Both the position numbers and the translations under genes were made by a program. The notes under the pieces are model-generated. The model was not told the origin of the DNA and did not search any database. It saw only the letters and a list, made by a program, of their open reading frames with translations. Source: Candidatus Poriferihabitaceae bacterium (GTDB taxonomy: Bacteria > Pseudomonadota > Gammaproteobacteria > Arenicellales > Poriferihabitantaceae). From it: a DNA stretch of 64,000 nucleotides. Position 1 is the first letter of the stretch. Every line of letters begins with the position of its first letter. This document shows positions 3,789 to 54,522 of the stretch, piece by piece. Location: the NCBI GenBank assembly GCA_965204165.1, contig OZ241969.1:4836997-4900996 (forward strand). Direction: 5' to 3'.

Positions 3789-4115
3789 TCAGTCACTGTT
3801 GCCGGCGCCGGACTCGGTGCCGGGCTCCGGCACGATGGTTGAAATCAACTTTCGGATCTCGCGGACATCCCCCTCCCTCCCAGACGAAATCAGGTCCCGT
3901 GCGATGGCCTGGGCGGTGAAAAGGGAAGCCCTGGCGACCCGGATTTCAGCCTCGGTGCGGGGCCACTCTCCATGATCGAGGGCCTCTATGACCAGGTCGA
4001 CGATGAGCCGGTTCGGAGAAATCCCCCGGTCCCGGGCGGTCCTTTCGATGCGGTTCCACTGCTCCGGCGTGACACGGATGTTCTTCTGGATGCTCTTCCG
4101 GATAGTCTGCGACAT
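3789..4115 (-). CDS. ribbon-helix-helix-like small DNA-binding protein
   Basis: KNIRVTPEQWNRIERTARDRGISPNRLIVDLVIEAL fits the beta-helix-helix RHH pattern. Confidence 0.6.
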   Translation of the reverse strand: MSQTIRKSIQKNIRVTPEQWNRIERTARDRGISPNRLIVDLVIEALDHGEWPRTEAEIRVARASLFTAQAIARDLISSGREGDVREIRKLISTIVPEPGTESGAGNSD

Positions 4116-4441
4116 AGATTATTTTGCCTTTCTGGATGCTGCGGCGCATCGTTCTGCTCCGAATACTACCAGCGTTACCGCCCACGGTTTCCGGTTCGAA
4201 GCCAATTTTTGAATCACCACGCACTCAAGAGAACCCCCTGAAGAGCTGCTTGCCCGGCAGTGATCAACATGGAGCGCAGGTACCAAAACGGTATCATCGC
4301 GCAATACGTCGCATTGCGCCGAGGGCCAAAGCGCCACCACCCTGGTGGCAGGCCAGTCCCGGGTTTCCGGAACCCGTTGTATTGGAACGTAATTTCCCGT
4401 ATGCCCACGGAACACCCCGGTGCCACCATATATGACCCGCC

Positions 4442-4754
4442 CCGGTTTGCAAGAACAGTTGTCGATCCGGAAGGGACAGGCTGCTGCCATATATCCGACC
4501 TTCTGACGGGGATCTCTATGCCCCTGGCCCTGATGGAATGCGCGCCGGCGTGTCCTTATCAATCGGTCGACCTCTACACAGCACACCGCAAGGTGTTTCA
4601 TGAATCGGGTCTTGACGTCACTCAGGTTCTCACTCCGGCGATTTGCCTTTTCTGCCATCACGATCAACTGCTCTCAAGCAACCCTGGTGGGTAACTGCTC
4701 TACTCTAATGTCAGGTTTGATATTTGGAATCCGGAACCGGATTCCTCCAGTGGC
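4442..4754 (-). ncRNA. putative IS1111 seekRNA/bridge RNA region
   Basis: Non-coding region downstream of the transposase with IS1111-type motifs (ttccatcagggcc...ggtcggatatatggcagca...cttgcaaa). RNA ends not defined. Confidence 0.65.
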
Positions 4755-5834
4755 CTACCCCCAGGCAGGCACATGATTCTCCTCGTACGGCCTGCCGGAT
4801 GTCAGCACCGCCCACGCGGTCCGCACCATCCGGTTCGCCAGTGCCACCGTCGCCACGTTCCTGTGACGCCGTTCCAGCAAATCCTTCAGCCATTGGCTTC
4901 GGCGATCCGTCTTCTCCTTCCGGGAAAGCTGATTGACCATCGTCCGCGCCCCATGGACCACCAGGCAGCGCAGATACCGGTCGCCCCGTTTCGATATCCC
5001 CAGCAGACGGTCCTTGCCTCCGGTCGAACGCTGCCCCGGCACCAGGCCGAGCCAGGCCGCGCATTCCCTGCCGTTACGGAACATGCCCGGATCCCCCATG
5101 GTGGACAGCAGCGCGGTGGCCGTCATCGGACCGATCCCGGGAATCGTCATCAGCAGCTGTGCCTGCTCGTCCGACTGGGCAATCTCCTCGATCATCCGGT
5201 CGTATTTCTCCACCCGCCCGTCCATGTGCACCAGCTCGTCGTACAGCTCGGCCAGCACGTCCAGAAACCGGGGAGGCAGGGTGATGTCCGCCGTGCCGCC
5301 GTTCCCCAGGATCTCCGCCACCGCCGGCCGGACCTTCCAGATGCCCAGGGGAATCTCGATGCCGAATTCGGCCAGCAGGCCGCGGATCGCGTTCGTGTGG
5401 GCCGTCCGGTTGGCCACCGCCCGGGACCGAACCCGGTGGATGGCCTGCTGTGCCTGACGGTCCGCGCTCTTGATCCCCACGAAGCGCATGCTCGGGCGCT
5501 GGACCGCCTCGCAGATCGCCGCGGCGTCCGCACGGTCGTTCTTGTTGGTCTTGACGTAAGGCTTGACGAACTGAGGAGCCATGAGCTTCGCCTCATGCCC
5601 CATGGACAGCACGTCCCGGCCCCACTGGTGGGCCCGGCCGCAGGCCTCCATGCCCACCACGCAGGGTGCCAGGTTGGCCAGGTATTCCTTCAGCTTCGCC
5701 GGCTTCAGCTTCCGGTCTACGCAGCTGCGCCCCGATGCGTCGGCGCCGTGGACATGGACCGAGTTCTTCGCCAGGTCGATGCCAATGAATGCGGGAGCGG
5801 ATTTGGGTTTCATGGTATGTTTCGTCTTGGTCAT
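4755..5834 (-). CDS. IS110 family transposase/recombinase
   Basis: IGIDLAK, MEACG, KNDRADA, IPGIGP, GLVPGQRSTGG motifs. Confidence 0.95.
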   Translation of the reverse strand: MTKTKHTMKPKSAPAFIGIDLAKNSVHVHGADASGRSCVDRKLKPAKLKEYLANLAPCVVGMEACGRAHQWGRDVLSMGHEAKLMAPQFVKPYVKTNKNDRADAAAICEAVQRPSMRFVGIKSADRQAQQAIHRVRSRAVANRTAHTNAIRGLLAEFGIEIPLGIWKVRPAVAEILGNGGTADITLPPRFLDVLAELYDELVHMDGRVEKYDRMIEEIAQSDEQAQLLMTIPGIGPMTATALLSTMGDPGMFRNGRECAAWLGLVPGQRSTGGKDRLLGISKRGDRYLRCLVVHGARTMVNQLSRKEKTDRRSQWLKDLLERRHRNVATVALANRMVRTAWAVLTSGRPYEENHVPAWG

Positions 5835-6499
5835 GGTTCATTCCTCGAGTGTGTGAATGATGTAATGGTCATTGTGGCTCCCAGAAGCCGTATCCGACAG
5901 GGATGGACCATGGCCCTTTCCTCTGCCGGATCGCCCGGCCCCCGGCGCCACAATGCAACGGAGTGCTCACTGTAGCGGGTTTCAGGATAGAGGGGAAACC
6001 GCTCCTGGCAGGATGTCCCCGGATCACCGCCTTGCTTGCAGACCAACGACCTGACGGGCTGCACTGTCCCGGCATCGCGCGCCTCCGCGATCCGGCTGCA
6101 TTCCGTTCCGCGGTCCCGCCTGACAGGCGTGTGCGGGATGTCGATGGTGTTGCTGGGTGGCTCATCGCTGATCGGAGTTGGTTGCAGTTTGCTACCCCCC
6201 GAGGGTGAGGCGGGTCATACCATTAATCGGGGACAAGTGTTTCCGGCAGCAGCCAGTCGTCCTTTGGCGGAGGAATCGCATGGGAGTGCCAGTCAAGCGC
6301 ACGCTTGCATAGGAGGGTATCCAGGATGCGTCGGGTGTGACGCGCACACGCCGTAGGGCGTAAGTATGCACGCCAGATCGAGCGATCCCGTCTCCGGCAT
6401 ATTCCCGTGCAGAAACAACGGCTTAGCCAGAGCGGCGTCTGAGCGACGCTGTTCACCGCGCTTGTGATGGAACGGTTCCGGACCCGGTGCGCGGGGACA

Positions 6500-6521
6500 G
6501 GTGGTCATTATAGGAAGCAGT
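6500..6521. repeat. direct repeat copy 1 (GGTGGTCATTATAGGAAGCAGT), candidate att site
   Basis: 20/22 identical to 9126-9147; the two copies bracket the integrase pair. Confidence 0.6.
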
Positions 6522-6536
6522 TCAGCGCATTGCAAG
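6508..6536 (-). promoter_or_regulatory. sigma70-like promoter TTGCAA-17-TATAAT, facing left
   Basis: Minus strand reads TTGCAA tgcgctgaactgcttcc TATAAT; the -10 lies inside the direct repeat. Confidence 0.55.
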
Positions 6537-6690
6537 CGGCTTTTTCGCGCTGTTGGCGAAGGTCTTTCAGACGTCTTTCCAGGCTCGGTTCCGGAGGGGA
6601 GGTTCGCTGCCGGAGTCCATCGGAGCCGCTCCCGCCGGATGCCCCGCATTCGGGGCGCGCCGGCGGCGACGAACGGTCGGCGGCCGTGTC

Positions 6691-7890
6691 TCATTCCGTC
6701 CGGGTCCGGCGACCGCCGGCCATGGCGCCGGCGATGATGCCGCCGATCCGTTCGGCCGCCGCGGCGAGATGGCCGTCGGCGAGGTGGGTGTAGGCTTCCG
6801 TCGTGCGATGGCTCCGGTGGCCGAGCAGCCTGCCGACCTGTGGCAGGTTCTCGCCGGACATCACGGCCTGGCTGGCGACGGTGTGGCGGAGGTCGTGGAG
6901 CCGCAGGGTGCCGAGCCGGGCGTCGGTGCGGACGGCATGCCAGCAGGAAGCCAGGCTGTGCTGACCGCGGCCTTCGGCGTAGCGGGGGAAGAGGAACGCG
7001 TCGGGATCGCGCGTTCGGGGAGAGCCGGTCGTGTCGATCGGGCCGGCGATGGCGGCGACGAGGTCGCGGGCCGCGGCGCCGAGGGGCACCGTGCGCGGTC
7101 CGGTCTTGGCGTCGGTCAGCCGGATGGCGTCGTCGCCGATGTCGCGCCAGCGGCGGTCGAGCACCTCGCTGCGGCGGCAGCCGGTCAGCGCAATGAGGCG
7201 GATCGCGGCGACGGCCTCGGGCCACCCGGCCTCGCGCCCGTCGAGGGCGCGGCCTAGTCGTTCGAGCTCGCCGGCGTCGAGGCAGCGGGCGACGTTGCGG
7301 CGCGGGTTCTTCGCGATGCCGAGGCAGGGGTTGGTCCCGGGCGGGCGCCAGCCCCATTCCTCGGCGCGGAACATCATCGTGCGGAGAATCTCGAAGGCGC
7401 GGTTGGCGGCGCCGGGGCGTTCGGTGCTGGCGGCGTCGAACCAGGCGGCGACGTCCTCGGGGCCGATGCGGTCGACCGGCGTCCTGCCGAAGGCGGGCAG
7501 GAGCCGCGCCTTGAGGTAGGTGCGGACGGTCCTGCGGCCCGAGGGCTTCAGGTTCGGGGCGCAGCGCCGCAGGTACTCCCCGGCGAAGGCGGAGAAGTCC
7601 GGGACGCGCCGCGCCCTGCGACGCTCCTCGGCGGGGTCCCCGCCGGCGTCGATGCGCGCGCGGAGGTCGCGGGCGCGGCGCCTGGCCTCGGCGAGTTCGA
7701 CCTCGCCGTGGCGGGCGATGACGAACCGCCGCGTGCGGCCCCCGATGCGGGCCTGGAGGACGTACACCTTGCGCCCGGAGGGATGGACGCGCAGCCCGAA
7801 GCCGGGCTGCCCGCGGTCGAACAGGATGGTCTCCCGGGGACCGGCGGCGCAGTCCCGGGCCAGCCGGGGGGTGAGGTCAACCCTGGGCAT
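6691..7890 (-). CDS. tyrosine integrase with arm-DNA-binding N-terminus (pair 1, gene 2)
   Basis: GFGLRV arm domain; catalytic R (TGCRRSE), K (DAKTG), HDLRH, LGH, Y (TEAYTH). ATG 7890 with GGGAGG RBS overlaps the upstream gene. Confidence 0.92.
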   Translation of the reverse strand: MPRVDLTPRLARDCAAGPRETILFDRGQPGFGLRVHPSGRKVYVLQARIGGRTRRFVIARHGEVELAEARRRARDLRARIDAGGDPAEERRRARRVPDFSAFAGEYLRRCAPNLKPSGRRTVRTYLKARLLPAFGRTPVDRIGPEDVAAWFDAASTERPGAANRAFEILRTMMFRAEEWGWRPPGTNPCLGIAKNPRRNVARCLDAGELERLGRALDGREAGWPEAVAAIRLIALTGCRRSEVLDRRWRDIGDDAIRLTDAKTGPRTVPLGAAARDLVAAIAGPIDTTGSPRTRDPDAFLFPRYAEGRGQHSLASCWHAVRTDARLGTLRLHDLRHTVASQAVMSGENLPQVGRLLGHRSHRTTEAYTHLADGHLAAAAERIGGIIAGAMAGGRRTRTE

Positions 7891-9094
7891 GGCGGCCTCC
7901 CCGGCGCTCGCGGCCGTGTTCGACGATGCCGTTTCCGCCATCGCCGGCCATGGCCGCGCCGATGCGGCCCGAGACCCGGTCGGCGGCATCGGCGACGGAG
8001 CGGGCGGACAGGTGGACGTAGCGCTCGGTGGTCTCGACCAGAGCGTGGCCGAGCAGTCTGGCGATGGTCACCATGTCGGCGCCGTTCATGGCGGCCACGG
8101 AGGCCCAGGTGTGGCGCAGGTCGTGGAGGCGGACGCCAGCCAGCCCGGCGTCGTCCCGGATGCGCCGCCAGTGGTGGGAGATGGTCGAGACCGGCTTGCC
8201 GGGCGAGCGCCCGGGGAAGACGAACGGGCAGTCCGGGTCCCGGCGGGGGATGGCGTCGATGACCCTGCGGGCGGCGCCGGCCAGCCACACGGTGCGGGGG
8301 CCGGACTTGGAGTCGGGGAGCAGGATGCGGCGGTCCCGGATCCAGTCCCACTGCAGGCCGGTGACCTCGCCGGCGCGGCAGCCGGTGAGCAGCAGCAGGC
8401 GGATCACGGCGACGGCCTGGGGGCAGTCGGGTTCGTGGCGGTCGAGGGCGGCGCCGAGCCGGGCCATCTCGTCCGCGGTCAGGAACCGCTCCCTGGGGGC
8501 GGTCCGGTAGCGCCGAGTGCGCCGGCAGGGGTTGGTGTTGTGGTCGCGGTATCCCCACAGCTCGGCCATGCGCATCATGACGGACAGGACCGGCATGGAG
8601 CGGTTCGCGGTGCCGGGGCGGTCCGCCATGGCGGCGAACCAGTCCCGGACGTGCCCGGGTCCGATGCCGTCCACGGCCAGGTGGCCGAGGACGGGGAGGA
8701 TCTCGTTGTGGACGATGCGCCGGTTGGCCTGCCGGGTGCGGGGCTTCCAGTGGCGGGCGTGGCGCTCGAGGAACTCGGCGGCGAAGTCGGCCATGGGGCG
8801 GCCGGGATACCGGGGACCGGCGTTCCGGGCCGGCGGATCGGCGAGCCCGGGCAGGACCCGGCGCGCCTCATGGCGGGCCTGGGGGACGCTCATGGCGTCG
8901 GCGGACCCGAGGGTGACGCGGCGGACCCGGCCCCCGGGGGTCCGGCGGCGCAGGAAGAAGGAGCGGGTTCCGGAGGGATGGACGGACAGGCCGAGTCCGG
9001 AGATGGCGTCGTCCCAGAGGTCGTACTTGCGCTTGCGGGGCCGGGCTGCGGCGACCCGTCTGGGGAAGGAGGTGCGGGAGGTGGATGCGGTCAT
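7877..9094 (-). CDS. tyrosine integrase with arm-DNA-binding N-terminus (pair 1, gene 1)
   Basis: WDDAISGLGLSV arm domain; TGCRAGE, DSKSG, HDLRH, LGH, TERYVH all intact; GAGGAG RBS. Confidence 0.93.
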   Translation of the reverse strand: MTASTSRTSFPRRVAAARPRKRKYDLWDDAISGLGLSVHPSGTRSFFLRRRTPGGRVRRVTLGSADAMSVPQARHEARRVLPGLADPPARNAGPRYPGRPMADFAAEFLERHARHWKPRTRQANRRIVHNEILPVLGHLAVDGIGPGHVRDWFAAMADRPGTANRSMPVLSVMMRMAELWGYRDHNTNPCRRTRRYRTAPRERFLTADEMARLGAALDRHEPDCPQAVAVIRLLLLTGCRAGEVTGLQWDWIRDRRILLPDSKSGPRTVWLAGAARRVIDAIPRRDPDCPFVFPGRSPGKPVSTISHHWRRIRDDAGLAGVRLHDLRHTWASVAAMNGADMVTIARLLGHALVETTERYVHLSARSVADAADRVSGRIGAAMAGDGGNGIVEHGRERRGGRHAQG

Positions 9095-9125
9095 GATGCG
9101 GCTCCTCGGTTCGGGCCGCGCGACC

Positions 9126-9147
9126 GGTGGTCCATATAGGAAGCAGT
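9126..9147. repeat. direct repeat copy 2 (GGTGGTCCATATAGGAAGCAGT), candidate att site
   Basis: 20/22 identical to 6500-6521. Confidence 0.6.
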
Positions 9148-9199
9148 CGCGGCGGCGTTTCTACCAACGGACCGCGCTTCCGGGACCGGAACGTAAATG

Positions 9200-9212
9200 A
9201 ATCAAGTCATTG
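9200..9212. promoter_or_regulatory. IHF-binding consensus site
   Basis: AATCAAGTCATTG matches WATCAANNNNTTR, upstream of integrase pair 1. Confidence 0.5.
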
Positions 9213-9951
9213 ATTCAGAACACGTTTCCATCATCTTGCACGACGGTGAACAGGCGTGCCCGACAGCAATTTCTTGCGTCGGGTGTGAGAGAAAACGCCG
9301 CCGGGCGTAGAAATGAGAGAAGATCGAGGAGCACACCACGAACGATTCGGGATCCCGGCAGAGCGAAGGGATGGAGCCCGGCGGCGTTTGAGCGGGGCAG
9401 CGGAAGCGACCCGCGATGGGGAGCGGCACGCGACCCGATGGAGTTCCCGAAGGGGAAGCGCGACCGACGCGCCAACGGGCAGAGGCACGAGAAGAAACTT
9501 GCGTCGGTGGCGGAGTCCGGTGCGGCTGACGCTGCGGCCCGGGAACCGGTTGACCACTGCGACCATCACCGTGAATTTTTTTCGGCTCGTTGTGGAACAG
9601 GTGGAGATGCCGGACGCGGCGCGCGTGACGGAGACCGGGACGGTCGGAGCGGCGGTCGCGTACGCCGGCGGAAAAATGATTGCGACCGAAGGGAGCAGGA
9701 GAAGAAGTACGTGCCGGCAGCGCCGTGCGGCGAAGCCGGGGGCGGTGACCCGGCACGGGTCCGCCACCGGGACCGTCGCGGAGCATCGGGTCGGCAGCAG
9801 GCGTCGAAGCGGATGCGGTTGCCGCCGCCGCCGCGGACGGGGAATGGAAAGAGCGCCGGGCGCCGCGCAGCGGCGATGGCGCGGCACGGCCGCCGCGCTG
9901 GAAGGGAAGAAGGACCGCGCCGTCGGAACGACGCGGCCCTGTGCCGGTGCC

Positions 9952-10890
9952 TCAGCACCGAAGCACCGGTATGCCGACGCTTTCTGCCTTGTCCGCCAGG
10001 TTCGCGGTGATGCCGGAGTCGCTCGGGAAGAGGATGATGCCCTTCGGCATCAGGTTCAGCAGCTCGTCGTTCCGGCGGAAGGGAGCGGCCTTCCCGTGGG
10101 TGTTCCAGTCGGGCCGGCAGACCACCTGGTGCACGCCGCGGGCCTCGGCCCAGCGGGCGGCGAACTTCTCGACGCCGGGCCCGCCGCCGTGGACCAGCAC
10201 CATGTCCGCGTACTTGCGGTGCGCGGCGTCCAGCTTGCGGAAGACCGCGTCCGGGTCGCCGTCCTTCCCGCCCGCGACGGCGATCAGGGTTCCGTCCGGG
10301 AGGTTCTCCTTCGCCGCGGCGCTGTCCCTCGCCCGGAGGAAGTCCCGGGCGTCGATGGCGGCGGAGGTGAGGACCCCGGTGCGGCTGGTGTGCGATCCGG
10401 AACGCGGGCGCCACATCTCCCCGGTCTGCGCCTGGTACTGCGCCGCCGCCGCGTCCCGCATCTCCTCGAAGGCGTCGCGCCTGCCGCCCAGGTTCTTCGC
10501 CCGGTCGGTGAGCAGCTCCAGCTCCCGCGACTTGATCTCGGTCCCGTCCTGTTCCTTCTGCAGGTCGCGGAGCTCCGGCGCGATCCGGTCGATGTTTCTG
10601 TCGAGCCGCCTGATCTGCGCGTCCAGCATGTTCACGAAACCCCAGAGGAGGGAGCCGGCCTCGTCGGCGATCTGGAACCCGGTGATGCCGATGGAGTCGG
10701 CGAGGACCGAGAACGCCTCGGCCACGGCGCCGATGGCGGTGTCCCGCTCCCAGACCTCCCTGGGATCGAACTCGCCGCGCTCGGGGGTCGCTCCGTGGAG
10801 CTTCGCCTGCTCGCAGATCATGGCGGTGATGGATTGATCTCCGGTGTCGATGCTGTCAAGGTTGTCGATGGTGTTGTCGATGTCTAACAT
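9952..10890 (-). CDS. DUF2493 (SLOG/YspA-like) domain protein, ICE/plasmid-associated
   Basis: C-terminal IAVAGGKD...LVHGGGPGVEKFAARWA...PDWNTHGKAAPFRRNDELL signature; ATG 10890 after GGAGA. Confidence 0.8.
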   Translation of the reverse strand: MLDIDNTIDNLDSIDTGDQSITAMICEQAKLHGATPERGEFDPREVWERDTAIGAVAEAFSVLADSIGITGFQIADEAGSLLWGFVNMLDAQIRRLDRNIDRIAPELRDLQKEQDGTEIKSRELELLTDRAKNLGGRRDAFEEMRDAAAAQYQAQTGEMWRPRSGSHTSRTGVLTSAAIDARDFLRARDSAAAKENLPDGTLIAVAGGKDGDPDAVFRKLDAAHRKYADMVLVHGGGPGVEKFAARWAEARGVHQVVCRPDWNTHGKAAPFRRNDELLNLMPKGIILFPSDSGITANLADKAESVGIPVLRC

Positions 10891-11059
10891 TGTGAATTCT
10901 CCGAATGAACAATAGGAAGTGAAGGGGCGAAGCCCCGCATGCGCTGGAAGGGAACTTCCTGCGTATTCATCCCTCATCGCCGCGCGCAGAGCCGCCACCG
11001 GGGCCCAGGGACATGGGTCGGCGTGCCGCGCGATGGTGCGGGCGTATATGGACGCCGCC

Positions 11060-11530
11060 GGGTTTGCAACCCCCCGGCTTCACGCTTTGGCAGTTTGACA
11101 AGTCGTCGAGCGCGGTCGTATATCAGGCCTCTGATTAAGCGGCATCACGATGTGCCGCGGGCCGGTATGGATATCAGCGGAACAGGTCCAGATCGCACTG
11201 TAGGCCTTTAGGCCGATGCCCGCACATGGTTTTCCTGTTCCCGGCTATTCGACTGTTTGCCCCTACTGCCTCTGCGCTCTTTCGAGTGGTTGCAACAACC
11301 CGGTCTCCCGGTTCCTCGTGGTTAACTCACGATCGCCGGAAAGCCGGGACGGTTCCGGAGTATTCCCCGGAATCGTTCAGGTGCCGGTCCGGCCTGCCTT
11401 GCAGACCGCAGCGGCGAAGTTCTTTTCCAGGGCCGGGGAGGCCTTTGCAGGCCCGTCCTGGCGCCGAACGCGGGACACCCTCGGCCATACGAGGTCGCCA
11501 ACCCATGTCTGAGTGTCTCCGGACACATTC
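11060..11530 (-). ncRNA. putative seekRNA/bridge RNA region
   Basis: IS1111-type downstream non-coding region; contains segments matching both insertion-site flanks (see findings). Confidence 0.7.
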
Positions 11531-12586
11531 TCACGCTCCCGCGGCCTGGATGCCGGCAGCCCGGACTACCGCGTCATGCCGATAGTCCTCCCCCTTCATC
11601 AGCAGCGCCCACATGATCCGTGCCATCTTGTTGGCCAGCACGATGGCGGCCTGGATCGTCGGCTTGCGTTCGAGCAGCCGCTTCAACCAGGGGTCCGGCT
11701 CCTTGCCCCAGCGGGTCGTTCGCTGGATCACGGTCATCGCGCCGGTGATCAGCAGTCGGCGCAGGTCCCGCTGACCCATCTTCGACAGCTCCCCGATCCT
11801 GGTCTTCCCCCCGGACGATTTCTGAAGGGGCACGAGACCGAGCCAGGCTGCGAAATCCCTGCCGCACCTGAAGTCCTCCATGTCCGGCGCAAAGGCCAGG
11901 AACGCCAGTCCCGTGATCGGGCCCACGCCCGGAATGGTCCGAAGACGTCGAATGGTTTCATCATCCCTGGCGGCCGCCCGGCCCTGGCGGTCCAGTTCGA
12001 CAATCCGGGCATCGAACGCGCGGATCTGCTTTACGAGCATGTCCGCCATCTCCCGGGCGAGGTCGGGAAGCCGGGAGTCTTCCCGGTCCTCCAGCACCGC
12101 CTCCAGGGTCTTGACGTTGGCCCGCCCCCTGGGCGCTACCAGGCCGTACTCCGCCAGCAGTCCCCGCAGGGAATTGATGGTCTGCGTACGCTGACGGACC
12201 ATGAGGTCCCGGACCCGGAACAGCATGGCCCGTGCCTGCTGGCCTTCGTCTTTTACCGAAACGACCCGCATCGTCGGGCGTGAGGCCGCCTCCGCGATGG
12301 CTTCCGCATCCGCCATGTCGTTCTTGTGCCGTTTGACGAACGGCTTCACATAGGCGGGCGGCAGAATATGAACCCGGTGGCCCAGCTGGCGGATCTCCCG
12401 TGCCCAGTGATGGGCCCCACCGCAGGCCTCCAACGCAACCAGGCAGGGGGGCTGCTTGCCCAGAAAGTACAGCAGCTTCCCCCGCGTGACCCGCTTGCGG
12501 AATGCCACCGAGCCATCCTTGTAGGCCCCGTGGAGCTGGAACAGGTTCTTTGCCAGGTCAATACCGATGATGCTAATCTTTTTCAT
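11531..12586 (-). CDS. IS110 family transposase/recombinase
   Basis: IGIDLAK, LEACGG, KNDMADA, IPGVGP, GLVPLQKSSGG motifs. Confidence 0.95.
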   Translation of the reverse strand: MKKISIIGIDLAKNLFQLHGAYKDGSVAFRKRVTRGKLLYFLGKQPPCLVALEACGGAHHWAREIRQLGHRVHILPPAYVKPFVKRHKNDMADAEAIAEAASRPTMRVVSVKDEGQQARAMLFRVRDLMVRQRTQTINSLRGLLAEYGLVAPRGRANVKTLEAVLEDREDSRLPDLAREMADMLVKQIRAFDARIVELDRQGRAAARDDETIRRLRTIPGVGPITGLAFLAFAPDMEDFRCGRDFAAWLGLVPLQKSSGGKTRIGELSKMGQRDLRRLLITGAMTVIQRTTRWGKEPDPWLKRLLERKPTIQAAIVLANKMARIMWALLMKGEDYRHDAVVRAAGIQAAGA

Positions 12587-13047
12587 GGATGTCGTCTCTC
12601 GTTGAAGGAGTGTTCAATGCCAGCCTGCTGGCACCTGCTTCACTATGAAGCAGTAGAGAGGCGGCGTCCATTCCATCGCAGTGACGACCGCAGGGAGGAA
12701 TGAGCCACGGTCGCGTGGCGCGCCGGCGCTAGGCGCGCCAGCGCCGTTGTCCCTGGAGGCGCGGCCGGAACGGAGCGGAGCGCAGTGGAGGACTCCCCCC
12801 TGGGAGTTGACGGAGAGAGCACGTGGACACACTGGGAATGTAGTAGGGAGTAGTACTGTCCCCCCAATGAGGTCGCGTCAGGCGTACAACGAGGAGAGCC
12901 GAGTGAAACGCCGTGGGTGCATGGACAGCACCAGCGACCGACAAGCCGCGCCGCAGGCGCTCATTGTGGGCAGGACGCCCACCGGGCGGTGGGTGTGTGA
13001 GGAAAGCGGCGGGAAGTGGACTTGCATGGCGGCGCTGGCCGTGACCA

Positions 13048-13281
13048 TCAGAATCGCCATCCCTGGAGCGGATGCGACTGGAGCCGCTTTGTGATGGTTT
13101 GGTGGACCTTGCTCCGGTCGTTCTGCCTGTACCAACCACGGCAGTCCTCGATCAACAAAATCAGGTAGAAGGGCTGGCCGGTCAGCGGATCCTCATGGCG
13201 ATACAGGTCGCCGACGGCCTCGCCGTCGTGACGGATGATGGCCTCGTCGTCGCCGGTTTTCTGGAAGGTGATTCGGGGCAC
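13048..13281 (-). CDS. small hypothetical protein
   Basis: 77-aa ORF with GGAG RBS and globular composition, in the leading-region gene cluster. Confidence 0.5.
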   Translation of the reverse strand: MPRITFQKTGDDEAIIRHDGEAVGDLYRHEDPLTGQPFYLILLIEDCRGWYRQNDRSKVHQTITKRLQSHPLQGWRF

Positions 13282-13424
13282 GGTTCACTCCGGTCGGTGT
13301 GCTGGTTGACATGACGCGCGAAGGCCCTCTCTCCGCCCCCGCGCGGTTCACCACCCGCCCCCCTGTCCATCAACTCCATCGCCATGCCGGCGGGCGCGGC
13401 GAAGCCGGCCGTCGCGGACGCTGC

Positions 13425-13459
13425 AAAAAAAAAGCCGCAGTCCCTGCGGGACTGCGGCT
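13425..13459 (-). terminator. intrinsic terminator after ssb
   Basis: 12-bp stem AGCCGCAGTCCC/GGGACTGCGGCT followed by a U-tract on the minus strand. Confidence 0.8.
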
Positions 13460-13484
13460 GGAGTGGAGGAGACGGAGAGGCGGC

Positions 13485-13937
13485 TCAGAACGGCAGATCC
13501 TCTTCGATCCCGTCGGCGTTCACCGGTGCGGAATCCTGTGCTGCGGCCGGGGCCTCGGCGGCCTGCGCCTGGGCGCCTCCGTCCGGCCTGGCGGGCCGGT
13601 CGAGGAACTGGATTCTGGAACCGGGCACGAGCATGATCTCCGTGGAGAACCGGTCGGCGTCCTCGCCGTCCTTGCGCCACCGGCGGGTCTGGAGCTTGCC
13701 GTCGACGTAGACCAGGCGGCCCTTCTTCGCGTGCTTCTCCAGCATGGTGATGAGGCCGTCCTGGAAGGTGACCAGGCGGTGCCACTCCGTGCGGTCGACC
13801 CGCTCCCCGTCCCGGATGTAGGACTCGTCGGTGGCGATGCTGAGGTTGGCGACGCGTCCGCCGGACGCGAGGTGGTTGACGGTGACGTCCTGTCCGATGC
13901 GGCCGATCAATGAGGCCTTGTTGAGTCCGAAAGGCAT
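13485..13937 (-). CDS. ssb: single-stranded DNA-binding protein
   Basis: NKASLIGRIGQD, TEWHRLV, KGRLVYVDGKLQTRRW and acidic tail EEDLPF; AGGAGG RBS. Confidence 0.95.
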   Translation of the reverse strand: MPFGLNKASLIGRIGQDVTVNHLASGGRVANLSIATDESYIRDGERVDRTEWHRLVTFQDGLITMLEKHAKKGRLVYVDGKLQTRRWRKDGEDADRFSTEIMLVPGSRIQFLDRPARPDGGAQAQAAEAPAAAQDSAPVNADGIEEDLPF

Positions 13938-14910
13938 ATGTACCTCCTGAGGTAACGTTGGTTGATGAAACGGAAAAAACGGATAAAACGGAAAAACGAT
14001 GGAACGAACCCCCGGGGGTCCGGGTTCTTCTTTCTCCCGGCCCCCCTTCGGTTCACCTTCTCCAGACCCCTCTTTCCCTCCGTCAGCCTTCGGGACGAAG
14101 GTCGAGGGCCGGCTCAGAGGAAACGTCGTCGAGGATCTCCCGGACAACCTGGCTGTCCAGGCCGATCTCGCCGAGCAGCTGGTCGGGGCTGGTGGGGATT
14201 TCGGATGCTTCGGGCATTTCGGAATTGCCCCCGATTTCGCGGATGTGCATGATGGTTCTCCCGTGTCGGGTTGATGGAAAGTTCGATGAACCCCGGGGAG
14301 GCGGCCGGAGCCGGGCTCCCTCCCACCTACCCGGGTTCACTCTTTCCGTCTCTGCCCTCCGACTCCGGAACGGGGCCTGGAAGGGCGGACAGGGGCGTGG
14401 GGACCAGGGTGGGGGCCGGGCCGGAAAAAGGCGGAAAAAAGCCCTGCGGGGCCGTCAGGGGCCGCTGCCGATGGATGCGGGTGGGTTTCCGTTCCGGCGC
14501 AGACCGGCGCCGGCTCCGTCCCCGGCGCATCGCGTGCGGCGAGCCGTGGTCCCGCCGGTTCCATGATCCCCGTCCGGCTGCCGCCCGGGACGGCTTGACC
14601 GTCTTCCGTGACAGCGGCGGTGTATACTGGCCCGGCACGCGCCCCCCGTCTCCTTACCGGGTGACATGCCGGCCGGCATCGCCCGACAGGGGGCGCGTGC
14701 TTCTTCCGGATTCTTCCGGGTTCTTCCGGGTTCTGCCGGACCGTTGATGATCATCCGCCGCCGCGGCCGACTCCACCGGGGCAGACGCGGGCGGGCCGGC
14801 AGCCGGCCGCCCGTGAAACAGGGGGCGGTGGCCCGGCGGTCACGGACATGGCCGTGCTGGATCACGGGCCGGCGGTACCCCGTCCGGCTACGGAGTGCGG
14901 TGGAGGGCAA

Positions 14911-15345
14911 TCACGCCCAGCCGACCGACCCCGCCAGCGGGTGGTTCTCGGCGACGACCTCGAAACGCCCCTGCCGGAGCCTGAGAAACGCGGCGCCGGC
15001 GTCCGCGTCGGCCCGGCTGTCGAAGGGCCCGTGCTCCTCCCCGGTGTCCAGGTCCACCACGGTGTATTCGGGCTCCCAGGCGGGCATCCCGCGGAAGTGG
15101 GCGGACCGGGTGTAGCTTCTCTCGGCACAGCTCGGACAGCGGGCCGCTCCCTGACTGGGCTGGCCACAATCGGTACAGACCATTTCCCGCCTTCTCCGCC
15201 AGTACCGTTTCCGGGACGCGGCGTTGCGCCGTTCGACCCGTCCGCTGCCGGCCTCCAGGGCATTGCAGGAAAGGCAGGTGGCGGTGCCGTCGAAGGCGGG
15301 GGCGTGTCCGCACCTCGTGCAGATGCCGGCGGCCCTGGAGTGGGT
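14911..15345 (-). pseudogene. multi-CxxC zinc-ribbon protein, 5'-truncated
   Basis: CTRC, CLSC, CTDC, CPSC motifs; no plausible start before the DUF5372 module boundary at ~15345. Confidence 0.5.
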
Positions 15346-15386
15346 TTTCAACTGCACGTCACCTGTGCATCGAGAAGCAGCGCTTT

Positions 15387-15695
15387 GTGGTGACGCACCC
15401 TTTTCACCCTCTTCACGGACGCGAGTTCGATCTGATCGAGACCACGTCGATGGTCGGGGTTGGACTGGTCCACTACACGGATGACGACGGCACGGTGCGC
15501 ACGATGCGTCAGGCATTCACAAGCGTCGCGGCGGTGGATCCGTTCGTGCGGGTGGCTGCGGGCCGGTCGGCGTTTCGCGTATCGGACCTGCTCGCGCTGT
15601 CGGCATTGCTGGCCGGCCTGGACGGGGATGCCTGCGACGGGAACGAGGGCGACGGCGATACGGACAGTGTCAAGGAGATTATGTCCCATGTGTAA
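15387..15695 (+). CDS. DUF5372 (y4bD-like) protein
   Basis: VTHPFHPLHGREF...DPFVRVAAGRSAFRVSDLLAL signature. Confidence 0.7.
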   Translation: MVTHPFHPLHGREFDLIETTSMVGVGLVHYTDDDGTVRTMRQAFTSVAAVDPFVRVAAGRSAFRVSDLLALSALLAGLDGDACDGNEGDGDTDSVKEIMSHV

Positions 15696-15877
15696 GAACG
15701 TTTTTGTCATACATGAGAAAGGAACGGAGCCTGGCGGGATGGGCCTGATAGAGAGAAACGGGAATATTCCTATATATATTCAGGGTTATTCGTACATTCA
15801 CAGGAGAAATCCTCTTGATTCGGCATTCATAATGTGCATAAATAGATTTACATTCATTTTTCAACGGACCCCACGCG

Positions 15878-16336
15878 ATGGCCAGACATTCCACCGATGC
15901 AAAGACCCGGGCCCTCAGGGAGCATGGCTGCCTGAACCCGAACGCGGAGGCGGTGCGGGACGAACTGTTCCTCTCCAACGCCTTCTTCGATCCGCGCGAC
16001 CTGCTCCAGGTCAAGTACGAGATGCTGCGCCGCGTGCGCGAGGACGGCGTGCCGGTGAGCCATGCCGCGGCCAGCTTCGGGGTCTCCCGGCCCACCTGGT
16101 ACCTCGCGCAGCGCGCCTACGATGCCGGCGGGCTGCCGGGACTGCTGCCGGACCGTCCGGGGCCCCGCCGGCCCCACAAGATCAGCGACGAGGTGGTCGA
16201 GGCGCTGCGGTCGGCGAAGAACGAACGGCCGGAGCTGACGGCCGCGGACCTGGTCGATCTCGTGCGCGCGCGCTTCGGCATCTCGGTCCATCGCCGCAGC
16301 ATCGACCGTGCCCTCGGGCGGGAAAAAAAACGATGA
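15878..16336 (+). CDS. helix-turn-helix protein (y4bC-like)
   Basis: FFDPRDLLQVKYEMLRRV, AAASFGVSRPTWY HTH, GPRRPHK. Confidence 0.8.
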   Translation: MARHSTDAKTRALREHGCLNPNAEAVRDELFLSNAFFDPRDLLQVKYEMLRRVREDGVPVSHAAASFGVSRPTWYLAQRAYDAGGLPGLLPDRPGPRRPHKISDEVVEALRSAKNERPELTAADLVDLVRARFGISVHRRSIDRALGREKKR

Positions 16337-16638
16337 AGGGCGGTCCGCGGAATACCGTGATCGACGCGGCGGAACACTCCGCCTACGGGCATGGCTACGA
16401 GCGGATGCGCCGCCATGCCGTCGAGCCCGGCGCCGTCCACGACCGCCACGGGCACGCCGTGGTGGCGCTGCGCGGCGTCGCGGCCTGGCTGCGGGCATTC
16501 GCCGAACTGCCCGTCCCGCCGGCGGCGGTCTGCGGGGGCGTCTCTGCGGCGACGCTGCCCGCCGATGTCGAAAGGCCGGTGATCGACGTTCTGCTCGAGA
16601 TGCTGAAGGGCCATATGCAGCAGGGGGAGCCGGCATGA
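16333..16638 (+). CDS. small accessory protein (y4bB-like)
   Basis: ATGA overlaps with both neighbouring genes; YERMRRHA motif. Confidence 0.6.
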   Translation: MKGGPRNTVIDAAEHSAYGHGYERMRRHAVEPGAVHDRHGHAVVALRGVAAWLRAFAELPVPPAAVCGGVSAATLPADVERPVIDVLLEMLKGHMQQGEPA

Positions 16639-17636
16639 ACACCGCCCACCAGAAGGTCACCGCGAGCCACCTGAGCCGCGATGCCTACCTGTACGTGCGC
16701 CAGTCCACCCTGCATCAGGTAAGCGAGCATGGCGAGAGCACTCGCCGCCAGTATGCGCTGCGGGAGCGGGCGGTGGCATTGGGCTGGCCGACCGAAAGCA
16801 TCGTCGTGATCGACAGCGATCTCGGCCTGTCCGGCGCCGACAGCGACCGCGAGGGGTTCAAGCGCCTGGTCGCCGAAGTCACCATGGGACGGGCCGGGAT
16901 CGTGCTCGGGCTGGAGGTGTCCAGGCTTGCGCGCAACTCCACCGACTGGCACCGGCTGCTGGAGATCTGCGCCATGAGCGAGACGCTGATCCTCGACGAG
17001 GACGGCGTGTACAGTCCCGGCGACTTCAACGACAGGCTCCTCCTCGGCCTCAAGGGGACCATGAGCGAAGCGGAACTCCACATGATGCGCGCCCGGCTCC
17101 GCGGGGGGACGCTGAACGCGGCCAAGCGGGGGGAATTGCGGATTCCGCTGCCGGTGGGGCTGGTCTACGACCCGCTGGGCCAGGTGGTGCTGGATCCGGA
17201 CCAGCAGGTGCAGCACAGCCTGCGGCTGCTGTTCGACACCTTCACCAGGACCGGCTCGGCCAATGCCACGGTGAAGCACTTCAACCGGGAGAATCTGCTG
17301 TTTCCACACCGTCCTCATGACGGCCCGCACAAGGGAGAGTTGCATTGGAAGCCGTTGCGGTTCGCACGGGTAGTTCGGACGCTGCACAACCCGCGATACG
17401 CCGGTGCTTTCGTCTACGGGCGAAGCCGCAGCCAGCGGCGTCCCGGCGGCGGCAGTGAGACCAGGAAGGTCCCGCGCGAGGAGTGGACCGTGCTGCTGCA
17501 CGATGCCCATCCGGGCTACATCACCTGGGAGCGGTTCGAGCAGAACGAGCGCCAGCTCCGGGAAAACGACTATGCCCATGCGGGCGGAGCGGGACGCCGC
17601 ACTCCCCCGCGGGAGCTCACAACTGCCCACAGTTGA
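16635..17636 (+). pseudogene. large serine recombinase (y4bA-like), truncated by the IS4 element at 17616
   Basis: YVRQST catalytic Ser motif, EVSRLAR, recombinase domain; frame runs into the IS IR and the C-terminal half is missing. Confidence 0.88.
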
Positions 17637-19946
17637 CTCAGTAAGCCTGACCCGGTACATTTCCGGGCATGCAGGTAGGTCTTCACCAGTTTGACGCCGG
17701 GACGGTGAGTTGGTTTTGCGATGCGGTTTCCGAAGCGGGCCGCACGCGGAGTTCGCTGGCCCGTGAGTTGTGCATCCGCGAGGACTGGACGGGGGACCGC
17801 GGCGAGTACTGTCTGGGCTCGGCGCGCAAGGCCCTTCCGGTTCTCGCGGACCGGCTGGGGGTTTCGTTGCCTCCGGCCCGTCCGGCATTCGGCGGACGCC
17901 GGGACGGGGCCCCGGATCCGGATTATCCCGACTGCCGGCTCCGGTGCGGTCTGGCGGAACTGGGCCAGGTGTTGCTGGAGCCGGTATCGGGGAAGGCGGA
18001 CCGCCGCCGCTGGGAGTCGATGATGGCGACGCATCACCCCCGGGGCTGGGCCCGTGCGCCGGGGGGCCAGATGCGCTACTGGGTATGTTCCGCGGTCCAT
18101 GGCCGTCTCGGGGGGATCGGATTCTGCGCCGCGGGCTGGCACCAGAAGGCCCGGGACGAGTTCATCGGCTGGTCGGCGGACGCGCGGGCGGCGAACCTGG
18201 GGAAGGTGGTCAACAACCATCGTTTCCTGATCCTGCCCGGGGTCCGGGTTCACGGTCTGGCCTCGTGCGCGCTGGACCTGGCGGCGCGGCGCGTGGCGGC
18301 GGACTGGGAGGCGGCGTACGGGGTCCGCCCGGCGATGGCCTACACGTATGTGGGTCCCGGCCATTGCGGAACCTGCTACCGGGCGGCGGACTGGCGGCGC
18401 TGCGCGAAGGCCACCACGGCGGGATGCACGGTGTGGATGAAGCCGCTGGCGGAACCCTGGCGTGTGGTATTGTGCGCCGAGCCGGGCCGGGCCATCCACA
18501 GGGCCCCGGCCCTGCACATGGACGGGGCCACGGACTGGGCCGGGCGGGAATACGCGCGCAGCACCCATCCCGACGGCCGGGTCCGGGAGAGGATCGTGTC
18601 CATGGGGCGGGCGTGGCTGGAGCATCCGGGCGCCGCGGTTCCGGAGATCTTCCCGGCGCGGGCGGACCGCAAGGCCGCCTACCGGCTGTTGTCGAACGAG
18701 GGTGTGACCATGAACCACATACTGGAGCCGCATCAGGCGACGATGGTGGAGCGCTGCGGGCTCGAGGAGACCGTCCTGGCGATCCAGGACACCACCACGG
18801 TGAATTACGACGGTCTGGCGGCGACCGGCGGGCTGGTGGACTTCGGCGGCGGCGGGAAAGGCCACACCCTGGGCCTGCTGGCGCATGTGGGACTGGCGGT
18901 CAACGGGGCCGGGCGGCCCCTTGGGGTGTTCTGCCTGGACGGGACCTATTGCGACGAAGGCAGGGACGAGGTGGCGAGCGCGCGCTGGGGGCACGGGCTG
19001 GACCGGGCGGGGGAACTCGCCCGCGCCTGTCCGTCCACGCGGGTGGTCACGGTGTGCGACCGGGAGGCGGACATCTGGGCGTTGTTCGCCCGGGCGGAAT
19101 CCCTGGGCGCGGGTCTGCTGGTGCGCGCGCGGCGGTCGACGAGACGCCGCGTGCTCGTGGAGGCGGGCGGCGAGGAGACCCTGTGGGACCATGTCGCCAC
19201 GCTGCCGAGGGTCGGTTCCCGAACGGTGAAGATCCGGGCCTGCGGCGGCAGGCGGGCGCGTTCCGGTCGCAAGGCGAAGATCGAACTGCGCGCCGGCAGG
19301 GTGAGGGTGCTTCCGCCGGTAAAGCCGGAGAACCGCGCCGGGCACGGGGGACCGATCGAGGTCCTGGCCGTCGTCGCGACCGAGAGGAGCCCGTCTCCGG
19401 GCAGCGAGCCCCTGCACTGGGTGCTGCTGAGCACCGAGGGCGCCGCGGACGCGGCGACCGCCCGGACCGTCGTTGGCTGGTACGAGCGCCGGTGGACCAT
19501 CGAGGAATACTTCCGGGTGCTGAAATCCGGCGCCCGGGTCGAGGACCACCGGTTCGACCACGCCGACGACCTCAGGAAGTGCCTCGCCTTCGACGCCATC
19601 ACCGCCTGCCATGTGTTCGATCTCGAGCGCATGGCCCGCGACAAGCCGGACGTCCCCGCCGACCGGGTCGTCTCCAAGGACGAAATCGCCATTCTCTACG
19701 TCCGGCTCATGGCCCATGGAATCCTCCGCGCACGCCCGCCGCCGGAGCGGCCCCCCGACATCCGTACGCTGGTGGTCGACATCGCCAGGCTCGCCGGATT
19801 CCATCCGCGCAACAGCCAGCCGCTGCCGGGCACCACCATGGTCTGGAAGGGGTATGTCCTGCTCCGTCAGGCCACTTCAACATACCGGGCGCTGAAAACT
19901 ATGGGAATGATCAAAACCGACTGAGTTGAATGTGGGGTGTTGTGAG
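17616..19946 (+). mobile_element. IS4-family element with DUF4338-fused transposase
   Basis: 26-bp imperfect IR CTCACAAC..CCCACA....ACTCAG at 17616-17641 and 19921-19946; no TSD. Confidence 0.85.
17669..19924 (+). CDS. IS4 (IS50/Tn5-like) transposase with N-terminal DUF4338 (DruA-like) domain
   Basis: N-terminal ARDEFIGW, VVNNHRFLILP, GTCYRAADW; DDE LAIQDTT, VCDREAD, YERRWTIEEYFRVLKSG. Confidence 0.88.
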   Translation: MQVGLHQFDAGTVSWFCDAVSEAGRTRSSLARELCIREDWTGDRGEYCLGSARKALPVLADRLGVSLPPARPAFGGRRDGAPDPDYPDCRLRCGLAELGQVLLEPVSGKADRRRWESMMATHHPRGWARAPGGQMRYWVCSAVHGRLGGIGFCAAGWHQKARDEFIGWSADARAANLGKVVNNHRFLILPGVRVHGLASCALDLAARRVAADWEAAYGVRPAMAYTYVGPGHCGTCYRAADWRRCAKATTAGCTVWMKPLAEPWRVVLCAEPGRAIHRAPALHMDGATDWAGREYARSTHPDGRVRERIVSMGRAWLEHPGAAVPEIFPARADRKAAYRLLSNEGVTMNHILEPHQATMVERCGLEETVLAIQDTTTVNYDGLAATGGLVDFGGGGKGHTLGLLAHVGLAVNGAGRPLGVFCLDGTYCDEGRDEVASARWGHGLDRAGELARACPSTRVVTVCDREADIWALFARAESLGAGLLVRARRSTRRRVLVEAGGEETLWDHVATLPRVGSRTVKIRACGGRRARSGRKAKIELRAGRVRVLPPVKPENRAGHGGPIEVLAVVATERSPSPGSEPLHWVLLSTEGAADAATARTVVGWYERRWTIEEYFRVLKSGARVEDHRFDHADDLRKCLAFDAITACHVFDLERMARDKPDVPADRVVSKDEIAILYVRLMAHGILRARPPPERPPDIRTLVVDIARLAGFHPRNSQPLPGTTMVWKGYVLLRQATSTYRALKTMGMIKTD

Positions 19947-21291: not shown

Positions 21292-21319
21292 TTGACAGGG
21301 CGGACGGAGCCGATAAAAT
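21292..21319 (+). promoter_or_regulatory. sigma70-like promoter TTGACA-16-TAAAAT
   Basis: Near-consensus hexamers; conserved in the homologous leader at 41517-41544 (minus strand). Confidence 0.55.
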
Positions 21320-21324
21320 GCCTT

Positions 21325-21415
21325 GCCAGCGGCCAGCGGCCAGCGGCCAGCGGCCAGCGGCCAGCGGCCAGCGGCCAGCGGCCAGCGGCCAGCGGCCAGC
21401 GGCCAGCGGCCAGCG
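21325..21415 (+). repeat. heptamer simple-sequence repeat (GCCAGCG)13
   Basis: 91 bp of perfect repeat ending 2 nt before ATG 21418. Confidence 0.97.
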
Positions 21416-21417
21416 GC

Positions 21418-52903: not shown

Positions 52904-52998
52904 CTCTCTCAGTTTCTTTTTCAGGTGTCAGGATTGACCGGAGTCGGAGGCAGGTGCCTGTTCCTGACCGGTTTCCCGTATTCACAGAGTCAACTCTC

Positions 52999-54189: not shown

Positions 54190-54342
54190 GGCGTGGTTTC
54201 CATCGAACATTCGGGCTGAAATAATCTTCGAGGGAAATGGTACTTCAGCCGTAATCGAATCGCAACCGAATGAGGTCAATCCGGGTCGTTTCCAATGGTG
54301 CGTTTGGCCGGTTCTGATTGGGAAACGCGAAAGAAATTCTAA

Positions 54343-54355
54343 AATCAACTTATTG
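54343..54355. promoter_or_regulatory. IHF-binding consensus site near the island's right border
   Basis: AATCAACTTATTG matches WATCAANNNNTTR. Confidence 0.5.
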
Positions 54356-54522
54356 ATATACAACAATTAATCATACGTGAAGGCAGGCAATGTTACGCTT
54401 GGGAATGAGTCTATGGGAATTCTGTTGTATAATTCCCGGTCCCCGCAAAGAACAGACCAGGCGCCCCGGGATTGCGCCCGAGCGACGTATAATCCGCGTC
54501 AAAATCAATCTGTCAATACAAA

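Follow-up and report, generated by a model that had tools for sequence, protein, structure and literature searches.

The integrases of genomic islands are usually seen as single enzymes accompanied by a small excisionase. Element A, described here, departs from that picture. It lies in a 64,000-nucleotide stretch of a Candidatus Poriferihabitaceae genome (contig OZ241969.1, positions 4,836,997 to 4,900,996; the whole stretch is hereafter called the window), where it occupies 2,948 bp at positions 6341-9288, counting one core, and its contents are two tyrosine integrases, int1 and int2, plus an attachment site of ~400 bp. The proteins of element A share with P4/IntSXT-type integrases an Arm-DNA-bind_3 (DUF4102) domain, a SAM-like core-binding domain, and an RKHRHY catalytic domain, and the arrangement around them resembles that of a P4/IntSXT-type integrase with a lambda-type attP, with a short core present in both attP and attB, arm motifs ~130-160 bp from the core, and an int gene abutting attP. 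In P4, the arm sites overlap the int promoter. Unlike that type, the family to which element A belongs has an obligate, co-diverging, overlapping pair of paralogues instead of one integrase, and element A itself comes without a tRNA or tmRNA target (usual but not universal in P4/IntSXT-type systems), without a Xis gene, and without cargo. Each protein alone is an ordinary P4/IntSXT-like integrase; the obligate pairing is what is out of the ordinary.

Several described elements also encode more than one tyrosine recombinase. RIT elements are flanked by inverted repeats. According to passages of PMC3414803 and PMC8138268, they are small and multicopy and consist almost only of overlapping tyrosine recombinase genes drawn from distinct, co-inherited paralogue families; a passage of PMC8138268 describes the three recombinases as "simple," without arm-binding domains. 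Element A is likewise a small, multicopy element built of overlapping tyrosine recombinase genes, but instead of the ritA-ritB-ritC set described in these passages it has two arm-type integrases and a direct 14-bp core. In Tn554 (TnpA, TnpB, TnpC), two adjacent tyrosine recombinases are both needed for movement, and in Tn554-related elements one recombinase is 611-828 aa long and TnpC is often present, as far as the relevant passages of PMC3414803 go; in contrast, the proteins of element A are 405 and 399 aa long and have the same domain order, and there is no third gene. BIM modules were considered and rejected, since there, in a passage of the same paper (PMC3414803), a recombinase is paired with an SMC-like protein. 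SEs (integrative elements that circularize with a strand bias) and GInts carry an operon of two catalytic tyrosine recombinases at the island end, have a circular intermediate, and include a cargo-free member of 6,353 bp (passages of PMC10214605). The same passages give SEs four core genes (intA, tfp, intB, and srap, or ginABCD), imperfect inverted repeats of 13-19 bp, and a distribution only in Gammaproteobacteria. The family of element A resembles them, so described, in placing two tyrosine recombinases at one island end and in having a cargo-free member; it differs in having two genes, a direct-repeat core, and members in several phyla. Finally, XerC and XerD, acting at dif, are also two paralogous, catalytically competent tyrosine recombinases and provide a working model for a heterotetramer. 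Unlike the proteins of element A, Xer proteins have no arm-binding domain, and the genes of element A are mobile, adjacent, multicopy, and far below the Xer cut-offs. A full-text literature search turned up no paper in which arm-type integrases are described as paired in a mobile unit; the supplementary tables of PMC3414803 and PMC8138268, which were outside that search, might list such pairs.

Ends, copies, and empty targets of element A

The ends of element A were set by a BLAST comparison of positions 4000-14000 with the window's genome and by subsequent inspection of the junctions, in which eight filled copies were set against six empty sites. The interval 6400-9300 matched eight places in that genome, seven of them at 100%. 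In all eight copies, a 14-bp core was present at both junctions, with two changes in the left core of copy c2. In the window, the left core, TGCGTCGGGTGTGA (6327-6340; junction J2, distal to the integrases), is repeated exactly as the right core (9275-9288; junction J1, adjoining int1); the right core lies 194 bp upstream of the int1 ATG and the left core 350 bp beyond int2. In the orientation of the integrases, the core reads TCACACC-NN-ACGCA. The six empty sites each consisted of the left flank, a single core, and the right flank, with no insert. By exact comparison, the interiors were identical in six copies (2934/2934) and matched at 2933/2937 positions in one copy and 2853/2937 in another, the latter (c8) being 3% diverged. 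The flanks were far less uniform, with 69-86% identity to those of the window in the left 100 bp and 80-100% in the right 500 bp, and identity fell from 100% to 69-86% right at the core. Because near-identical interiors sit in diverged flanks, element A is a recent insertion into diverged copies of one target.

Other data sets agreed with these ends. The target flank at 9289-9789 was found in 14 genomic copies, eight occupied and six empty. In four public sequencing runs from two studies, the contig graphs fork at 6327 and just past the right core, and loose contig ends at 9275 resemble empty-site flanks. Another genome (locus L030) carries the same element at 91% nucleotide identity; the target is the same there, as is the core on either side. 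The attP, attB, attL, and attR sites could all be read directly from the eight insertions and six empty targets. Altogether, we consider it highly probable that positions 6341-9288 are a cargo-free integrative element, made of a pair of arm-binding integrases and an attachment site, that moves by conservative site-specific recombination at the 14-bp core. The two NN positions of the core vary among the empty sites and also differ between the two junctions of single elements (c2 and the related loci L080 and L081). Because they differ between the junctions of one element, strand exchange is placed on the TCACACC side, and the crossover, judged from these sequences, probably occurs within (T)CACACC.

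The preliminary description of this locus, made from the window alone, had drawn the ends elsewhere. It took a pair of 22-bp direct repeats (6500-6521 and 9126-9147) as the boundaries of the unit, released by recombination between them as a circle of ~2.6 kb, with the crossover building a promoter for int1. These repeats are real and nonrandom: 20 of 22 positions are identical, no such match arose in 100 shuffles, the similarity extends to 23/26 over 6496-6521 and 9122-9147, and the left copy carries a -10 box. Nonetheless, the left repeat is 155 bp and the right repeat 127 bp inside the respective core, and all eight copies share sequence past the repeats, over exactly these distances, up to the core. 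All 16 junctions are thus at the 14-bp core, 127-155 bp outside the repeats; the six empty sites are joined exactly at the core, the genome BLAST returned no partial copy ending at the repeats, and in relatives the copies of the motif are kilobases apart while their distances to the cores are fixed. Recombination between the 22-bp repeats is consequently left with a vanishingly small probability. What the preliminary description had said of the contents of the unit was borne out. It is a minimal mobile unit of two recombinases without cargo, as seen from its eight copies, the six identical 2,934-bp interiors in diverged flanks, the six empty sites, and the lack of a third gene, and its two overlapping arm-type integrases are catalytically intact by their open reading frames, Pfam domains, and complete R-K-H-R-H-Y residues.

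Copy c7 (C1:1990124-1993690), whose interior is the one matching at 2933/2937 positions, is the only clearly damaged one; it has a 3-nt length change, and its int1 is split into two frames. At one further locus (L017; C1:3969167, minus strand), the usual left flank and the 14-bp core are followed by the first three bases of element A and then by unrelated sequence; the junction may have been truncated here, or this core may hold a different insert.

The damage in c7 and the divergence of c8 would fit a reading in which all copies are immobile relics of one past burst of insertion, and so would the absence of a circle junction from assembled contigs. The junction that joins 9288 to 6341 occurred in none of the contigs of the four runs placed on 6100-9500; assembled contigs drop rare forms. 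Some of these contigs do contain "skip" joints, whose short sides measure 21-68 letters (30 or less in every case but one) and which most likely derive from paralogues. On the other side stand six interiors that are identical over 2,934 bp and have intact open reading frames, which indicates very recent activity. We therefore regard the relic reading as unlikely and treat element A as a recently active element that recombines at its core.

Arms of the attachment site and a predicted outward promoter

Between its cores, element A carries two arms with recurring features. The P' arm (6341-6535, minus strand) was recognized by its co-linear homology to the distal arms of four cargo-carrying relatives; local alignment scores were 34-73, compared to shuffled maxima of 24-30. 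It contains an inverted repeat, ACGCC-N4-GGCGT (6348-6361), an inverted block (6449-6472), one copy of the direct repeat (6496-6521), and an outward promoter-like site. The repeat copy, located on the plus strand, corresponds to the arm motif CTTCCTATAAT on the minus strand. The P arm comprises the 190 bp from the core to int1. In an alignment of 64 distinct P arms, the best-conserved block, GAAACGCCGCCGCGGCTGCTTCCT, in which most positions are at least 90% conserved, is the right copy of the direct repeat (9122-9147, plus strand), a family-conserved block 30-55 nt upstream of the int1 ATG.

The same motif recurs in the distal arms of relatives. In L080, L081, L052, and L077, the sequence GCTTCCTATACTG is 161 bp away from the distal core, and in element A and L030 the distance is 163-168 bp; in all of these the distal-arm motif matched the P-arm copy at 15-17 of 18 positions, the shuffled maximum being 14. 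In the relatives, cargo puts kilobases between one copy of the motif and the other, but their distances to the cores stay fixed. Since the same motif stands at the same core distances in cargo-carrying relatives, the 22-bp repeats belong, as sequence comparison indicates, to the conserved parts of both attP arms, with a lambda-like spacing from the core, and the most economical reading is that they are candidate arm-type integrase sites on the P and P' arms. Their conservation around homologous pairs, on which the preliminary description had laid weight, was thus found, with the motif at the same core distances in the relatives.

The only promoter-like site in 6200-9500, where 0.1 would be expected, is TTGCAA-17-TATAAT (6535->6507, minus strand; 10/12 match). 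It reads toward 6341 and out through the core, and its -10 is supplied by the left repeat copy. A promoter-like TTGnnn-17/18-TATAnT facing the core, with a -10 formed by the motif, was present in all seven P' arms examined (8-10/12); as a promoter, the P-arm repeat copy matched at only 6-7/12. In the circles of IS911, IS30, and other insertion sequences (ISs), a junction promoter arises from a -35 and a -10 located at opposite ends. Element A would resemble these circles in that circularization would raise recombinase expression from an outward promoter at one end; unlike theirs, both of its putative hexamers lie in one arm, and all that the circle would do is join the promoter to the genes, over ~360 nt in which attP is included. 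The outward promoter of the preliminary description, with its -10 in the left repeat, is thus present, but it is complete within the element and not assembled by a crossover. The idea of integrase expression coupled to excision survives in a changed form, in which the circle would link a complete promoter to int1.

Two further features of the arms had been placed outside the unit and are in fact inside it. A palindromic site matching the IHF consensus on both strands, WATCAANNNNTTR (9200-9215), is conserved in L030; the consensus has four matches in the window, compared to 0.28 expected. The P-arm inverted block (9226-9253, minus strand), CTGTTCACCG-N11-GATGGAA, is the partner of the block at 6449-6472 and is also conserved in L030.

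Some resemblance between the arms and the target DNA was noted as well. A block of ~28 bp (CCGCTCAAnCGCCGC..GGGCT) occurs 90-115 bp from the core both in the target flank (9289-9410) and in P' arms (6341-6460 in the window, and in L080, L052, L061, and L077), and the inverted repeat ACGCC-N4-GGCGT is likewise found 6-10 bp from the core in the target flank and in the P' arms of the elements. Alignments of the target flank with the P' arms of relatives gave marginal scores (24-35, compared to 24-27 for shuffled sequences) and were always co-linear; the alignment with the P' arm of element A itself was not significant (score of 27 versus a shuffled maximum of 30).

Paired integrases in element A and its relatives

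The upstream gene, int1 (7877-9094, minus strand), and the downstream gene, int2 (6691-7890, minus strand), encode arm-type tyrosine integrases of 405 aa and, from the ATG at 7890, 399 aa. Both open reading frames are intact, and the stop of int1 overlaps the start of int2 by 14 nt; by virtue of this overlap, the two genes are translationally coupled. The starting methionine of int2 is nearly invariant in a 29-row alignment. Each protein has an Arm-DNA-bind_3, a SAM-like/central, and a Phage_integrase domain, all above Pfam cut-offs (PF13356, Arm-DNA-bind_3/DUF4102, 37.7 and 57.4 bits with a cut-off of 27; PF00589, Phage_integrase, 76.3 and 55.6 bits). The catalytic R-K-H-R-H-Y set is complete in both, and the two are 41% identical. 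Neither approached the NCBIfam cut-offs for Xer proteins or integron integrases: int1 scored 61.3 bits against a XerC cut-off of 335 and 53 bits against a XerD cut-off of 330, and int2 scored similarly. A codon-position G+C screen showed no third gene in the element and no Xis-like gene.

A collection of species-representative genomes yielded 80 loci with int1 relatives at 45-93% identity, from Alphaproteobacteria, Binatia, Thermodesulfobacteriota, Acidobacteria, Nitrospirales, and Gamma- and Deltaproteobacteria. Several of the assemblies are at chromosome level, and several genomes have 4-6 loci. An int2-type gene directly follows the int1-type gene in 72 of the 80 loci; among the other eight, three pairs are split by 1.8-4.5 kb, two lie at a contig edge, and three have no int2-type gene. 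The 72 adjacent pairs comprise 42 that are full length without a stop, 24 that are partial or have a stop in the aligned stretch, and six at 42-46% identity. All six catalytic residues are kept in 43/43 int1-type and 41-43/43 int2-type proteins, the shortfalls being alignment gaps. A plasmid of a cultured Aurantiacibacter carries an overlapping pair at 44% identity that is annotated just as "site-specific integrase," with a core-like CACACCGTACGCC upstream.

The relatives also share the core. Of 66 related pairs, 54 have a core-like motif, with at most three mismatches to TCACACCCGACGCA, at a distance of 184-210 bp upstream of int1. Close to int2, a second core was not found beyond chance (within 600-700 bp, a mean of 7.9/20 mismatches compared to 8.1 in controls; 53 loci) and was present only in L030, and exact words that the 350 bp before int1 have in common with the 450 bp after int2 were no longer than those of controls in 47 relatives. 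Both negatives arise because cargo separates int2 from the distal core. Indeed, TCACACCNNACGCA occurred 15, 24, 3, 17, and 10 times in the genomes of five relatives, compared to 0-1 times for a control pattern. Same-strand pairs of TCACACCNNACGCA were 4.6-29 kb apart, and in the islands that could be placed, one member of the pair was the core upstream of int1. In L052, for example, a DNA methylase-HNH fusion lies between int2 and the distal core. The relatives thus appear to carry the integrase pair at one end of islands of 4.6-29 kb that are bounded by the same core, with cargo between int2 and the distal core, and element A is a minimal, cargo-free member of this widespread island family.

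The window's genome itself holds 14 further tandem pairs of related arm-type integrases, in about six families, which together with the eight copies of element A make 22 pairs in a 5-Mb genome (examples of the further pairs are at C1:232111-234593, 328011-330487, 779176-781623, and 3962018-3964396). Those that recur do so as repeats of 2.5-4.5 kb. One of them is in the window, at 51671-54366 (minus strand), at the right edge of an IS-rich island and adjoining chromosomal genes; as in element A, a palindromic IHF-consensus site (54343-54358) lies just upstream, and three other places in the genome carry the pair as a repeat of ~2.5-2.7 kb that is 79-95% identical. The BLAST boundaries of the remaining pair families in the genome (B-G) showed no terminal repeat, and the core of the pair at 51671-54366 was not found. 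In a tree of the genome's own pairs (16 pairs, one or two representatives per pair family, 33 rows), which has some long branches and weak support for its deepest joins, upstream and downstream members formed mirrored clades. Position in the pair required 3 and 2 changes on this tree, compared to 11.3 after shuffling, and none of 500 shuffles gave so low a number.

We also evaluated the pairing by co-folding. The score of int1 with int2 was 0.52, compared to 0.00 for the best control; agreement between the runs covered at least 70% of contacts, and the predicted local distance difference test (pLDDT) value of the partner was at least 77. Complexes of this kind have already been solved, and the test does not separate a hetero-oligomer from a homo-oligomer. 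In calibration, 116 of 157 solved complexes attained the mark, as did 2 of 215 mismatched pairs; at scores of 0.60 or less, only 18 of the 157 did so, along with both of the mismatches that passed. The predicted fold thus lends weak support to pairing. The preliminary description had raised the possibility of a heteromeric XerCD-like recombinase; adjacency in 72 of 80 loci, the retained catalytic residues, and the mirrored clades support the pairing indirectly, and from the pairing we infer that int1 and int2 act together as a heteromeric recombinase.

The two integrases could instead have separate jobs, for example, one integrating and the other serving as an excision or directionality factor or as an arm-bound regulator. 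The element has no Xis-like gene, each protein has its own arm-binding domain, and the repeated arm motifs are of two types (direct and inverted), all of which would suit such a division. Yet all six catalytic residues are kept in both proteins throughout the family, which a purely architectural or regulatory role would not need, and the genes are translationally coupled through their 14-nt overlap. We judge a division of labor to be somewhat improbable.

Our proposal is that int1 and int2 form an obligate heteromeric recombinase, a mobile analogue of XerC/XerD equipped with arm-binding domains, whose expression is switched on by excision because the P'-arm promoter would reach int1-int2 only in the circle, and that the cargo-free form is an IS-like element driven by site-specific recombination that rides on a target-carrying mobile element. 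We put this forward tentatively, as possible but short of probable. In the proposed cycle, basal expression of int1-int2 would yield a complex whose central domains bind the core and whose N-terminal domains bind the arm motifs, possibly with an IHF bend at 9200-9215. Recombination of attL with attR within (T)CACACC would then release a circle of 2,948 bp. In the integrated state, int1 would lie behind a terminator-like hairpin of the target and lack a good promoter of its own; after circularization, transcription from the outward promoter would cross attP and enter int1-int2 from ~360 nt upstream of int1, and the circle would integrate into another copy of the core. If this is true, riding on another mobile element may help explain the spread of a cargo-free element across bacterial phyla.

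Besides the missing circle junction, several points weigh against this interpretation of element A and its integrases. Copies of the target element could, in principle, undergo gene conversion, which might homogenize an insert as well. No gene for a recombination directionality factor was found in the element. The distal arms of L061 and L060 match the motif at only 13-14/18, within the shuffled range, so that there it is visible by eye alone. The promoter is predicted from a consensus match and from conservation in seven arms from ~5 lineages, and relatives at 62-69% identity carry different sequence at the position of the IHF site. The heteromer, in turn, rests on conservation and a weak fold score, and the proteins might act in separate steps.

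The family extends across several phyla, has many copies per genome, and always has two catalytically intact, co-evolving arm-binding integrases. In its simplest form, two genes and two short DNA sites suffice to ask why there are two integrases, how direction is controlled without Xis, and whether expression is coupled to a circle. Under the annotation label "site-specific integrase" alone, such a family goes unnoticed. With its 14-bp core defined, such a pair may also serve as a recombination tool.

Target element and genomic surroundings

The target-side flank (9289-9789) belongs to a repeated element of ~7.4 kb that encodes an SSB, a YAcAr/SLOG protein, and a large serine recombinase. This target element, itself repeated in the genome, extends over ~3822-17615 of the window, minus 4427-6225, 6341-9288, and 11037-12680. 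Its genes are a small open reading frame (3789-4115), the YAcAr/SLOG gene (9952-10998), the SSB gene (13485-14147), genes for a DUF5372 protein and a helix-turn-helix (HTH) protein, and the large serine recombinase gene (16308-17636) at the far end. The core of element A is intergenic, between the YAcAr gene and the small open reading frame and downstream of both the YAcAr/SLOG and the SSB gene; following the reading direction of the integrases, a terminator-like hairpin of the target DNA (9295-9308, minus strand) stands immediately upstream of it. No clear gene crosses attB; the open reading frame lists of one empty site gave only overlapping frames of high G+C content. The window contains no tRNA or tmRNA gene and no Rfam family at gathering score.

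Gene sets homologous to those of the target element flank the integrase pair in other phyla, and in L081 the YAcAr context is accompanied by a homologue of the small open reading frame beyond the distal core. A YAcAr homologue, often with an SSB gene, lies on the same strand upstream of int1 in 36 of the 80 related loci; in the other 44 there is none within 5 kb. Because 36 of 80 loci share the YAcAr context, the family often sits at a site carried by another mobile element. This context, together with the location of all eight copies of element A in the SSB/YAcAr/serine-recombinase element, would also suit a reading in which the pair is merely the integration module of that larger element, spreads only with it, and owes its identical copies to gene conversion. 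However, the pair is missing, precisely at the core, from six copies of the host element, and the fall in identity from 100% to 69-86% is exactly at the core as well. Moreover, 44 of the 80 loci have no YAcAr gene within 5 kb, and the host element has a large serine recombinase of its own at the far end. This reading is accordingly very unlikely, and element A is better described as an integrative element in its own right that entered the target element at the core.

Two IS110-family insertions, each with many copies in the genome, are found nearby: one (4427-6225) is 100 bp from the left core of element A, and the other (11037-12680) interrupts the target element. Elsewhere in the window, transposase-type open reading frames (17669-19924 and 61175-62227) have an N-terminal part that matches Druantia DruA (PF14236), joined to Tn5/IS4-type DNA-binding and DDE domains; the DNA that holds them recurs ~12 and ~25 times in the genome. 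Finally, very large genes for Calx-beta/cadherin-like/LapA-type adhesins lie within the IS-rich island (21292-27729 and 35476-38421) and are apparently interrupted by ISs.

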